A stretch of DNA of 64,000 nt, taken from contig OZ024741.1 of assembly GCA_964016885.1 (NCBI GenBank), positions 95,604,001-95,668,000 on the forward strand, given 5' to 3'. Each line of letters opens with the position of its first letter. Positions within the stretch are counted from its first letter, which is position 1. The notes beneath the pieces were generated by a model. That model worked only from the letters and a program-made list of their open reading frames with translations. It did not search any database and was not told the origin of the DNA. The DNA is from Eledone cirrhosa. Lineage: Eukaryota. A program made the translations under genes and the position numbers. Shown one piece after another: positions 23,575-58,706 of the stretch.

Positions 23575-23960
23575 ATAATTGGTGTTGGATGCTTAAAGCG
23601 TCCGTATGCGGTAGGCCGTATGAGCACTCGATGCTCTCATAGAGCAGAGTATGATATCACAGAAAAAAAGAGAATCAGTGTTGCGACGAATGGAATTTAT
23701 TGGACATATTACAATCGTTTCTCTGGCGACCAGCTCGAGGCACGATCGATGTGATGATCGAACCTGACTCTGAAAATCGCAAGCTCCTCAGATACGTCTT
23801 GATTCTACGAAGATTTTCCTATGTCCTTTTACATCAATATACTTCGCTTGTCGGCTTAGATCCTGCTGTTGTCATTCTATGAGTCGTCAGAGAAACGATT
23901 GTAATATGTCCAATAAATTCCATTCGTCGCAACACTAATTCTCTTTTTTTCTGTGATATA
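23575..23960 (-). mobile_element. Penelope-like non-autonomous insertion with inverted arm, HHR and tail
   Basis: 23653-23729 is the reverse complement of 23883-23958. The right arm fuses with (TA)n and the left arm carries a ~75 nt extension to (TA)n. Confidence 0.7.
23703..23798 (-). ncRNA. Type-I hammerhead ribozyme with long stem II
   Basis: Minus strand: GACGTAT-CTGAGGA-(63 nt nested hairpin)-GAAA-CGATTG-TA-ATATGTC-CAATAAA; 7-bp stem I. Core-mutated relatives at 24128-24192(+) and 44546-44644(+). Confidence 0.75.
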
Positions 23961-24303
23961 TATATATATATATATATATATATATATATATATATATATA
24001 TATATATATATATATATACACACATAAATAGTGTGTGTATGTATGTATATATATAGGTGATAGGTGCAAGAAAATTGCGTCCGTAGGTGGTATGCACACA
24101 GAATCGGAGACAAGCTTACATACCGAGGCATATTTGAGGATCTTTCGATTCCAGAGTCAGGTTCGACAGACAGTGAAACATATGTAATATGTTATTAAAT
24201 ATGTTATGATGCAACACTGACTCTTTGTTCCTATATTCTTATACTATATATATATATATATATATATATATATATATATATATGTATATATATATATGTA
24301 TAT

Positions 24304-25120
24304 ATAATGAAACGAAGTAATCGAATAGGACCAACACAGCTTCGGTCGTTTCTTCACTCACTCAATAATTTAATTAAGTCTTTATTATTAAGACACAAAC
24401 CGAAGAAAATTAAATTACACACTTACACGTTAATTAGTGAGAAAAACAATTCGTGTGGGTAGAAAATTTAATTTTCCAGCCCCGGACGAATGCATTAGTT
24501 TCTGCGACTTCACCAGTTAGCGGCAGTCCGAATGGAACTACCGTGTGCAGAAATTAGGTAATGTTAGTAAACATTACGTAAGTTGTTAGAGCCGCGTTTT
24601 TAGTGGGGATTAGCCTCTCTGGAACCGAGAATGTAGATTATCCCTCCACTATATCACTCATATGGCATCGGCTTGAGTAGTAGTAACCTCAACTTTCAGT
24701 GACTCGTGACTTGACACCAAAGGAGAGGTTAGCCAGTCCTGACCTTTCACAAGGAACACGTTGGCACTACTTCAAATTGAAAAACATTTACAGGCCATGA
24801 AACACTCAACCAGGGGCGTCCATAGAGAAAACAAAGACATAGTTGCAAACAAATAATAAATAAATCGAACTATAATAAACAAAATAAAAAAAGTTCAACC
24901 TGCAGTCTGAATTCGGGTTAATCCCCTAGGAGTTTAAAACAATAATGACCGAAGGTGTCGAATAGTACCGACACAGCTTCGGTCATTTCTCACTCAATAA
25001 TTTGATTAAGTTTGTATTACTAAGACATAAAACCAAGAAAATTAGAGTGCACACTTATACGTTAATTAGTGAGAAAATCAATTTCGTGTGGGCAGAAAAT
25101 TTGATTATCCGGCCTCGGAC
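24304..25120. mobile_element. Unclassified ~638-nt unit present as a partial tandem (~180 nt direct terminal repeats) in (TA)n
   Basis: 24304-24487 is similar to 24942-25120; strong hairpins lie in the repeat; (TA)n on both sides. Confidence 0.65.
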
Positions 25121-25269
25121 CATATATATATATATATATATATACTGAATCTGGTAAAAGCAATACACAAAAGCATTTTAGTGACCATGCATCACTAACC
25201 GCTGCTATTACCCTGTTAAACAACAAGCATAATTGAAACAGTGTATCTAAGCCACTACTCTAGCCTCAA

Positions 25270-25925
25270 CATTTTTACTTAATGCACAAGGCCATCCATC
25301 AATGCACAAAAATGGAAGATTCAATTCATTTAGGATTGGTTCGCCGACTACCCGCACCCCATACCTTTCTTCGTCCTAATCGAGACATACCTCAACAACT
25401 CCCACTTGGAAGCTGAAGTGAAAAAGAGATTTGACCACCATACAGGCGAGTTGCGATGGCAGAAGAAAGGGAGGAGTTGCCATTTTCCTGTATGACTCAT
25501 TTACTATAGACGCAAAGGACCTTTTGTCCAATGACTACTGCAAATCGGTGTCTGTACATAACAAAAGCCAACCATTTGATCATAGTTAGGCTCTAGAGAC
25601 CACACTGAGCGCCTCTACTGTGTTTGCAAGAATGCTTCAACAAAATTAAGTGTTTTATTTTTCAGCATTGCCGCAGTCTCCCCTGTGTTGATTGAACAAC
25701 CAATATTTTGAAACTAAGCATTTGCATCTCACTCCAAGATATATAAGCAATAGAACCACTTTTCCATTTTATGGATGAGTTTTTCCAGTCTCAACTCATG
25801 CTCGTGACAACGAGATGTAACAAAAGTATTTTGGATCTAGTGTTAAGTAAACACACAAACACTTTCCATAATGCTGTAGTTGATAAAACGTGACTCTCTG
25901 ACCATAATATGATACTCGGTGGCCT
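25270..25925 (+). pseudogene. Decayed AP-endonuclease region of a CR1/Jockey-type LINE
   Basis: Motifs in order across frames: LLNAQG, LIETYL, RRKGGVAIF, SILDLVL, SDHNMI. Confidence 0.65.
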
Positions 25926-26027
25926 GAGATTCGAACACGCGAAAGCTAAACCTAACGAACTCATGCTAACCCACCTATTTAACAATATGGACCTTTGAAA
26001 TGCAATCTGTGATGGAATCACAATAAT

Positions 26028-26447
26028 AATAATTGTTTCTACTTTTGGCACAAGGCCAGCAAACCCAGTACATTACTGGTACTTTATTTTATCGACCCCG
26101 CAAGGATGAAAGGCAAAGTTAACCTCGACGGGATTTGAACTCAGACCGTAAAGGGACGTAACTATGCTAGAAAGCATGGCGTCCAACCCTCTACCGATAC
26201 TGCCAATTCATAATTACAATAATAATAATAAAAATGATTTCTACTATAAGCACAAGGCCAGCAATTTGAGGGAAGGGAAAGTCGATTATATCGACACCAG
26301 TACGTTACTGGTGCTTTATTTTATCGACCCCGTAAGGATGAAAAGCAAAGCTAACCTCGGCGGGATTTAAACTCAGAAGTAAAGGGTCATAACTCTATGC
26401 GACTAAGCATGTTGTCCGACGCTCTACCGATTCTGCTAATCCACCAC
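26028..26447 (-). mobile_element. Two SINE family 1 copies (short and long variant)
   Basis: 26028-26206 and 26235-26447 match the consensus; both are nested in or next to the LINE fragment. Confidence 0.88.
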
Positions 26448-26514
26448 CTACTGAAATAATACCGCTCTATTTTCTCTGATCTCAATACAGTTGATCGGGG
26501 CAGTATCTGTGAAG

Positions 26515-56148: not shown

Positions 56149-56179
56149 GTATAATTTAAAATAGTCTAGTGAGTTTTGG

Positions 56180-57265
56180 GACAATAGCAATAACAGCAAC
56201 AACAACAATAACAGAAATAGCAACAACAATAGTAACAACAGCAATAGCGACTATCACAACAGCAATAACATTAGCAACAACAGCAATAACAACAGTAATA
56301 ACAACAAACACTACAACAACAATAACAGCAACAATTGTAACAACAACAATAGCAACCACGACAACTACAGTAACATCAGCAACAACAGCATCAATCAAAC
56401 TAACAGCAGTAATAGCAACAGCATCAGCAACAACACCAACTGCAACAACAACAACAACAATACCAACAACAGTGAAAACGCCATTTTCATGAATAAGGAC
56501 GAGTAATACAACAACAACAACAACAACAGTAACAACAACAACAACAACAACAACAACAACAACAACAACAACAACAACAACAACAACAACAACAACAACA
56601 ACAGCAACAACAACAACATCATCATCATCATCATCATCATCATCAATAGCAGTGACAATAGCAACAGTAACAATAACAACAGCAACATCAACAGCAGCAT
56701 CATCGTCAACAGCAACATTAAAAACAACACTAATAACAGCAACAATAACAACAATAACATCTTCCTCCTCTTTCTCCTCCTCCTCCTCCTCCTCCTCCTC
56801 CTCCTCCTCCTCCTCCTCATCATCATCATCATCATCATCATCATCAACAACAACAGCAACATCAACAATAACAACAACATCATCAGCAACAACACAGAAG
56901 CAAAACCACAAGCAAATGCAACAGTATAACCATCATACTCATCATCATCATCATCACCTCATCGTTATCCTCATTGTCATCGCCATCATCGTCATCGTCA
57001 TCATCACCATCACCATCATCATCATCATCATCACCATCGTCGCCATCGTCGTCGCCATCGTCGTTATCACCATCACCATCATCACCATCATCACCACCAT
57101 CACCACCATCATCATCATCATCATCATCGTCATCATCACCATCATCATCACCATCGTCACCATCATCGTGGTCGTCGTCGTCATCGCCATCATCACCATC
57201 ATCATCACCATCATCAGCAACTATATAAACAACAACAACAACAACAACAACAACAACAACAACTA
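56180..57265. repeat. Compound (AAC)/(ATC)/(TCC) trinucleotide repeats
   Basis: Direct reading. Confidence 0.93.
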
Positions 57266-58098
57266 CAGCAACAAAAAATATCAGAACAAATATAACCAAA
57301 ACAAGAACAAGACACAAAAACAATACAACAATAAAAACAAAGATGGCGGAAAATTAAGGTTTTCATTTAGAAAATAGGAAGCAGGAAAAGGGTTAAAAAC
57401 AAAACAACACAAACATATGACAAGCGAACGAAAACGAGGCTAAATGTGATAAAGAGTGGTAGGCGAGGGTGGGGGAGAAATTAAGGCAGATGTATGAGAT
57501 TGTGGGATTGGGGTGGGGCTGTTATATTGTGCCATTCTTAGCTATGTGGTTTTTTTACTCATCCTTTAACCTGTACTAACTGCCCCACCCCAACAAACAC
57601 TTAATCTACCCCAGTATTCTCCCCCCCTCCCACAATAGTCATAAAGGGTAAAAAAGAAAGAAAAAAACAACTTGCTCTTTTTAGATATAGAAAAAGAAAA
57701 AGGAAATGTAAAGAAAACATAAAGCAGGAACAAGAAAGAATATTGATGGATAGAAATAACATCTCTCTATCTCTCTCTCTATCTATCTATCTATCTATCT
57801 ATCTATCTATCTATCTCTCTATCTGTCTGTCTGTCTACATAGAAAGGCAGATGATACATAGATAGAATGATAGATACACAAACACACACACACACACACA
57901 CACACACACATATATATATATATATATATATATATATATATATTGTTATACTTTGGGAGGGTCATGTTGCCAATAAGAAACACACGCACCAGTTGCTTTC
58001 ACTTCAATTTAATTTATTATATATTTATAAATTTACAAATTTATAAATTTCTGGTTGGTTGGTTGGTTCCACAACCAGATAGTTGTTTATATATATAT

Positions 58099-58143
58099 AG
58101 TCATAGTTCTTTCGTCACACACTCTGTGACCTCTTCAGTGACT
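58099..58143 (-). ncRNA. Minimal type-I hammerhead ribozyme (left arm)
   Basis: Reverse complement of 58254-58298. Confidence 0.75.
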
Positions 58144-58253
58144 GGGGATTTCTTTCTTCGTTTCTGTGCCTTTCTTTTCTTCTATCCTACGCCATTTGAA
58201 AATGGCGTAGGATAGAAGAAAAGAAAGGCACAGAAACGAAGAAAGAAATCCCC

Positions 58254-58298
58254 AGTCACTGAAGAGGTCACAGAGTGTGTGACGAAAGAACTATGACT
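58254..58298 (+). ncRNA. Minimal type-I hammerhead ribozyme (right arm)
   Basis: AGTCA-CTGAAGA-G-GTCACA-gagtg-TGTGAC-GAAA-GAAC-TA-TGACT. Confidence 0.78.
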
Positions 58299-58706
58299 AT
58301 ATATATATAAACAACTATCTGGTTGTGGAACCAACCAACCAGAAATTTATAAATTTGTAAATTTATAAATATATAATAAATTAAATTGAAGTGAAAGCAA
58401 CTGGTGCGTGTGTTTCTTATTGGCAACATGACCCTCCCAAAGTATAACAATATCGGTTTCAACACACGATTTCAGATAAAGAATCTTGCTAAACAAATTC
58501 AGAAACGAAATATATATATATATATATATATATATATATATATATATATATATATATATATATATAAGTAAAAGGGATATTCAATTTGTTGGTAATTCAA
58601 CAAATATAAATGTTTATAACTGATTCAGAGCACTCGACAGATTTCTGGAGTATAATATTCAATGATATTAAATAAATGGAAACTATATTTATAAAACCAT
58701 ATTTAT

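Follow-up and report, generated by a model that had tools for sequence, protein, structure and literature searches.

Single-tailed head-to-head pairs of Penelope-like elements in (TA)n tracts of Eledone cirrhosa and their possible origin by twin priming

Penelope-like elements (PLEs) of several families are inserted as head-to-head pairs into (TA)n tracts within a 64,000-nucleotide stretch of the Eledone cirrhosa genome (contig OZ024741.1, positions 95,604,001 to 95,668,000; hereafter the window), and one arm of each pair runs on into a short ‘tail’ that the other arm lacks. This arrangement was found in 97 of 98 resolved pairs from the window and the wider genome, and rare copies carry clustered A-to-G changes that are common to both arms; on balance we lean towards the formation of these pairs by twin priming on one sense RNA. 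The source genome is 3.0 Gb in size and rich in microsatellites. Five families are named here by window position, namely A (23575), B (37005), C1 (52390), C2 (53481) and D (39069 and 57940). The first-pass annotation of the window had described a common architecture for six insertions of these families, with (TA)n flanks and a tail confined to one arm, and all six were found in place, with tails of ~40 nt in C1, 38 nt in B, 57 nt in D, 78 nt in A and ~98 nt in C2. Exact motif matches across the genome number 23,310 for D, 3,726 for C2, 2,882 for C1, 1,436 for B and 780 for A, with none for the reversed control motifs of the five families, and all five elements are high-copy repeats.

One tail per pair and edits shared between arms

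The sample for family D comprised every one of the first 100 genome matches, whilst for B, C2 and A it comprised the outward-facing pairs among the first 100 matches, picked by the motif that precedes both ends; C1 contributed three pairs only. This gave 102 inverted pairs, four of which could not be resolved and were excluded (L090, L159/160, L162 and L229), and the window's own insertions account for six of the 98 that were kept. One tailed and one tail-less end were present in 97 of these 98 pairs (D 37, B 20, C2 22, A 15, C1 3; five pair ends were read by eye), and no pair had two tail-less ends. Independent choice at each end would be expected to give this combination in about half of the pairs (P = 3e-28), and so strict a one-of-each rule suggests that the two start sites are coupled.

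The position of the tail relative to arm length was compared in D, B, C2 and A, C1 being excluded because its reference contains an inversion. The tailed arm exceeded its partner in 34 pairs, fell short of it in 39 and matched it to within 15 nt in 21; among the 73 unequal pairs, 39 thus bear the tail on their shorter arm. In seven further insertions (L025, L039, L041, L072, L081, L152 and L199) the inverted arm consists of a tail fragment alone, each time opposite a tail-less arm; five of the 12 rows in this screen were discarded as full tails with mismatches or as doubtful (L075, L192, L207, L261 and L262). The inverted pieces of L097, L105 and L034 derive from further upstream than the main arm. 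If a single complementary DNA (cDNA) folded back on itself, the arm made first would hold the loop and would be the longer, and nothing absent from that first arm could appear in its copy; short-arm tails and arms made of tail alone would therefore need a second cDNA.

Both arms appear to have been copied from the same molecule in a small set of edited D copies. Clusters of 19–55 A-to-G changes were found in L067, L090, L109, L117, L211, L212, L213 and L297, mostly 130–450 nt from the tail end, with the last ~130 nt spared. L067 and L090, in which dense A-to-G changes lie on the sense strand, were found among the first 100 D matches, and L109, L117, L211, L212 and L213 were found by targeted patterns. 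The edits common to both arms amount to 23 of 24/25 in L067, 27 of 33/35 in L211 and 28 of 29/28 in L090, and in L213 they are common to both arms across the overlap (read by eye). Between different insertions the sharing of edits is far lower (Jaccard 0.06–0.51), and the pattern of L090 occurs at its own two arms only. The tailed arm is the shorter arm in L067 and L211. Private sense-strand edits that both arms have in common, alongside a tailed arm that is sometimes the shorter, point to a single sense RNA from which both arms derive. ADAR enzymes have a neighbour preference that matches the observed edit context (5′ A/T 0.47/0.46 versus C/G 0.26/0.22; 3′ G 0.54), and the changes would thus fit ADAR, as adenosine-to-inosine-like editing written back into the genome. 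Hyper-edited arms were absent from the 92, 104, 70 and 58 alignments of B, C2, A and C1, respectively.

A composite edited locus was also observed, in which the edits run along one strand through three D arms and, probably, a TA tract (L297:6379-9209; G000:C4:162095378-162098208), as if older insertions had been transcribed and re-inserted whole. Its source locus was sought and not found, the spacer itself being a high-copy repeat. Positions 7830-8290 of L297 belong to a very young repeat with copies 99–100% identical and 1,471 candidates, some of which occur as inverted pairs.

Fixed ends and the (TA)n target

Genome copies of each family stop at two fixed sites. Among the first 30 matches, (TA)n started at one of two fixed distances in 28 for D, 27 each for B and C2 and 26 for A and, with a looser fit, in 21 for C1, which exceeds chance, as 7% of window positions pass the same test. 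TA is present on both flanks in 89 of 93 pairs. The window's two D copies are 100% alike over arm end and tail (39036–39179 and 58543–58400) and turn at 54 and ~258 bp, which supports the suggestion that arm ends are fixed and that these copies inserted independently. Tandem copies reveal the native sequence past each end, this being AATAT|CG at both ends in D, 57 nt apart, and AATAT at both ends in B, 38 nt apart, whilst in C2 and A the ends have 2–4 nt in common with (TA)n. The junctions consequently overlap the target by 2–5 nt; the TA microhomology proposed earlier agrees with these end sequences, and from them we infer that it may serve in priming.

Direct target duplications were detected in 4 of 93 pairs (control 8/600). 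Two are clear, one of 10 nt in a non-TA target (L211, also L211/L264) and one in a TA run with a unique island (L063), and such duplications fit staggered nicks on both strands. A search for empty-site analogues among the fetched loci returned six rows, all of them self matches or the ends of neighbouring repeats, and no true empty site. Raw Illumina data were available as one run from another sample, for which it is not established that the species is that of the source; this run contains 2,442 reads in which (TA)n is joined to the tail-less D end, and several read groups that switch strand within the D arm.

Twin priming and other routes to a head-to-head pair

Twin priming, the account that we hold to be somewhat better than evenly supported, would begin with a GIY-YIG endonuclease making staggered nicks in both strands of a (TA)n tract. 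Over 2–5 nt, each DNA 3′ end would anneal to one or other of two AT-rich sites close to the start of the open reading frame (ORF), and both 3′ ends would be extended on the same RNA, the first cDNA being displaced by the second. The two cDNAs would end at variable points, often the 5′ end of the RNA, and would be joined head to head with little homology, the gaps being filled by repair; the tail would then be the stretch lying between the two start sites. Of 74 D inner ends, 11 fall 316–336 nt from the tail end, with none in the two neighbouring bins; this cluster lies at window position 58199, and similar clusters lie ~220–235 nt from the inner site in C2 and ~165–175 nt in A. The D cluster falls at AAAATGGCG, which we take to resemble the YY1 initiator motif, and the clustered inner ends likely mark the transcription start. 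LINE-1 twin priming likewise uses the two target strands as primers on a single RNA, but it leaves a non-duplicated inversion with an internal second site, whereas in the present families the position of the second site is constant and the arms overlap.

Twin priming and the hybrid route considered below have in common that the two DNA ends start at separate sites of a single RNA, and this shared premise is probable. Whether PLEs integrate by obligate coupled twin priming, with one complex using two start sites of a single sense RNA, one for each end of a staggered break in (TA)n, is a question on which we regard the case as evenly poised; if true, this single rule would account across PLE clades for the tail, for the head-to-head repeats and for the presence of one tail per pair, and germline-fixed ADAR scars would be molecular barcodes recording PLE integration.

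Several observations weigh against twin priming. One pair, L072, has two tails (1 of 98), and in the D sample about half of the insertions are without a second arm (37 one-tail pairs and 36 without a full second arm), so that inversion is common, not universal, among D insertions. Near-perfect palindromes make up 21 of 94 pairs, some of them at native palindromes, and short inversions occur within the main arm of L032, L038 and L095; both look like fold-back. No clear excess of homology was found at the inner junctions, at least 2 nt being present in 9 of 60 against 14% in the null, by a noisy measure. Target duplications are visible in just the four pairs noted above, and an anole PLE protein initiates at sites without homology to the target (PMC11167929, in the part of that work available). 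The edited pairs with the same sense number four, of which two were found by patterns biased towards sense A-to-G changes and one, L090, is complex; post-insertion conversion between arms could also give shared edits. L212 and the composite L297 are edited along one continuous strand, from which it follows that some existing hairpins are re-copied whole, although the varied junctions argue that this route is a minor one, the shared junction of two C2 copies at a native palindrome notwithstanding.

Some of these points are accommodated by a hybrid, which we judge unlikely but a serious competitor, in which reverse transcription again starts from both DNA ends at the two sites, but one cDNA folds back to make the duplicated arm and a short second cDNA only captures the folded strand. 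The hybrid yields a single tail per pair on an arm of either length, together with edits common to both arms, and it fits the 21 equal-armed palindromes, the D inner-end cluster and the short internal inversions. The tail-only arms and the upstream inverted pieces of L097 and L105, on the other hand, require direct joining of cDNA to cDNA without fold-back. An origin from two RNA molecules on a protein dimer, one for each DNA end, with the arms later made alike by gene conversion, is improbable. The anole PLE protein is a predicted dimer (PMC11167929), a subfamily site distinguishes the two arms of L072, and the arms of older pairs are 3–7% different; yet all four same-sense edited pairs have edits in common, and among the pairs examined none combined an edited arm with a clean overlapping one.

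Simple fold-back, in which a single cDNA starts at the tail end, turns back on itself and yields a copy that becomes attached to the second DNA end by way of the inner AT site, corresponds to the route that the first-pass annotation had favoured. It accounts for the 34 pairs in which the longer arm bears the tail and for the 21 equal pairs, and for 19 of 20 D pairs the two arms resemble each other more than the median copy outside the pair. It cannot produce the 39 short-arm tails or the seven tail-only arms, which contradict it as the sole route and leave it very unlikely. Self-priming on an antisense RNA template, as proposed in PMC3846280, would account for head-to-head palindromes, and antisense-strand editing is indeed present in L212 and L297. 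L067 and L090, found without a biased pattern, carry sense-strand A-to-G changes in both arms, and a mirror-image search gave L212 only, a re-copied hairpin (one strict pattern and hence a weak test); we consider this explanation slighter still. Perfect palindromes beside microsatellites are prone to error, but an assembly or chimeric-read artefact can be set aside almost entirely, since the ends are fixed to the base in five families, arms diverge by as much as 7%, and the Illumina run of another sample shows (TA)n ends at the tail-less site as well as opposite-strand joints.

Element identity, related systems and the window

The identification of these elements as PLEs was borne out, since B, C2 and D encode a reverse transcriptase (RT) followed by a C-terminal GIY-YIG endonuclease (EN). 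Long D copies have an RT and then a GIY-YIG domain with a Cx4CxxC linker, CIDKKCITC; the Pfam RT match of the D protein lies under the curated cutoff (E 1e-3), and its EN was seen from motifs, not from Pfam. The full RT-EN protein of B is present in copies outside the window, which read KCGDPRCGTC...YYIGET, and its linker, CGDPRCGTC, fits a C-terminal EN with a CX2-5CxxC linker. With CCHH residues read by eye in both, B and D show what appears to be the Neptune/Nematis clade pattern (C-terminal EN, CX2-5CxxC linker, CCHH motif), and B is presumably of the Neptune type by its motif pattern, whilst D is given only the joint Neptune/Nematis label. The C2 protein has the motifs RMRWK, ADKTN, CNCRNPESC, CKLCLNE and CRH and a C-terminal EN. 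The Hydra markers given in the consulted part of Craig et al. (2021; PMC8557442) are RWK, DKT, a CxCx5C linker, CxxC and CxH around E and N, and a C-terminal EN, and C2 would accordingly belong to the Hydra clade by motifs alone. Naiad and Chlamys, defined by an N-terminal EN and the lack of a canonical hammerhead, do not fit, the EN being C-terminal in B, C2 and D. In the 3-kb loci of the copies examined, A and C1 had no matching ORF and are provisionally placed among EN-containing (EN+) PLEs by structure; the pseudo-long terminal repeats (pLTRs) of that group, in tandem or inverted order with an optional tail, were found here. An ATG precedes the D arm end and tail in the same frame, so that the D tail likely lies at the ORF start. 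The tandem end region and hammerhead-like core of C1, in which no ORF was found, suggest that it is likely non-autonomous.

Other claims about these elements held in part. Of a single (TA)n-targeting system, the (TA)n preference stands whilst the singleness does not, several families from at least two PLE clades being involved. A clear hammerhead core is present in D, C2 and a C1 copy, is weak in A and was not found in B; the candidate polyadenylation signal AATAAA occurs in every named family but C1, and poly(A) is absent from every element end read. Readings as DIRS-type elements or miniature inverted-repeat transposable elements were rejected, long copies encoding RT and GIY-YIG and the repeats being 5′-truncated copies of the elements' own 3′ end, and an Rfam scan gave hairpin microRNA models only, below gathering scores, which were dismissed as chance.

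The elements are therefore of an ordinary known class, and their inverted architecture is already published and is seen here in new family members. As far as the available text of PMC8557442 goes, EN+ PLEs there show 5′-truncated copies, partial tandems, an inverted 5′-truncated copy, a hammerhead in the pLTR, a tail of 30–40 bp often at one end only, and a (TA)n preference for Naiad and Hydra; the tail is ascribed to endonuclease resolution, and the mechanism of inverted repeats and tails is called open. The present elements are alike in truncation, inversion, one-end tail and (TA)n preference and, in some families, in a putative pLTR hammerhead; they differ in tail length (38–98 nt), and tail counts per pair and by arm length are given here and do not appear in that text. 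The Poseidon element PAc of the green anole has been studied in vitro (PMC11167929, seen in part), where its protein cuts and extends both strands at AT-rich targets and initiates at two internal positions, close to the beginning of the ORF, that delimit the tail, without target homology and with no strand difference. The extension of both strands and the paired start sites favour twin priming; as excerpted, the study ends before the second-strand steps. Whilst the bounding start sites, the cutting and extension of both strands and the AT-rich targets are alike, the sites here are AATAT-like with one for each DNA end, those of PAc lack target homology, and the clades differ. Penelope elements of Adineta vaga likewise have head-to-head pLTRs, a tail on one inverted pLTR, 8–10 bp target duplications and palindromes at inner junctions (PMC3846280, in its accessible sections), all of which have counterparts here; self-priming on an antisense template was proposed there, whereas the edited copies here point to sense RNA. 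C1 may resemble the non-LTR retrozymes (10.64898/2026.07.22.740005), being apparently short and arranged in tandem, with a hammerhead-like core and without an identified ORF. The excerpt of PMC13282606 lists Penelope families of an octopus, without structural detail.

A literature search found no per-pair tail count, PLE twin-priming model or use of edited genomic copies; older papers on Penelope structure and supplements lay outside that search. With young copies in thousands, a near-absolute one-tail rule and natural RNA barcodes in this genome, endonuclease resolution, antisense self-priming and fold-back become countable predictions, and the coupling rule and shared edits provide a testable lead on the open question of the PLE mechanism.

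Within the window, the families are stacked end to end on one (TA)n tract at 36987–40230, as at many other loci (e.g. L135, L142, L152 and L178). This stack contains a sixth element overlooked in the earlier annotation, which is inverted and flanked by (TA)n and in which neither an ORF nor a hammerhead was found; at the end of its long arm stands an upstream copy of the tail, which suggests a unit of ~560 nt.

Table 1. Coordinates of the paired insertions and their parts in the window
Feature	Position	Strand	Details
Family A insertion	23578–23955		tail 23578–23655; (TA)n on both sides
Family A longer arm	to ~23882 from tail 23578–23655	−	strand is that of the sense sequence
Family A shorter arm	23883–23955	+	without tail; strand is that of the sense sequence
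Family B long arm	37009–38682	−	3′ end of ORF, microsatellite-rich 3′ untranslated region and pLTR; end without tail at ~37007
GIY-YIG endonuclease C-terminal fragment, presumed Neptune-type	38311–38682	−	PF01541, E 2e-7
Family B short inverted arm	38683–39036	+	38-nt tail (39000–39036)
Family D mini insertion	39070–39234		57-nt tail 39070–39127; 54-bp arms, turn at 39180
Sixth element of like build	39265–40190		long arm without tail 39265–39829; shorter arm with 44-nt tail
Family C1 insertion	52389–53229		tail 52389–52430; internal tandem copy of end region 52629–52702; hammerhead-like core 52853–52900; right arm split by dispersed ~190-bp repeat at ~53013–53203
Family C2 insertion (putative Hydra-type PLE)	53481–54131		short arm without tail ~53481–53597; long arm 53598–54030; hammerhead at ~53930; tail 54031–54131
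Family D insertion	57944–58510		arms 57940–58197 and 58199–58453; hammerhead cores at 58138 (−) and 58259 (+); likely ORF start in the arm end; 57-nt tail 58454–58510, between two AATAT|CG sites

Further repeats surround these insertions. Short inverted arms face each other across a (TA)n tract at 44710–45195 and 16877–16966, and a hammerhead-like core is present in another repeat family at 13147–13153 (−), which also occurs at 43992–44203, 54646–54841 and 62296–62438. A frameshifted L1/Tx1-like long interspersed nuclear element, recognized from the ORF list by a zinc-knuckle ORF1 and an APE-RT ORF2, occupies 6608–12144 (+), with fragments of such elements at 6116–6508 and 26948–27687. The dispersed ~190-bp repeat resembles a short interspersed nuclear element and is often found as tandem pairs; its sites are 1535–1919, 13419–13791, 18383–18764, 26027–26443, 47535–47715, 53026–53210, 55354–55860 and 63162–63342, and a degenerate (TGG/TAG)n array extends over 5.3 kb at 29676–34950.

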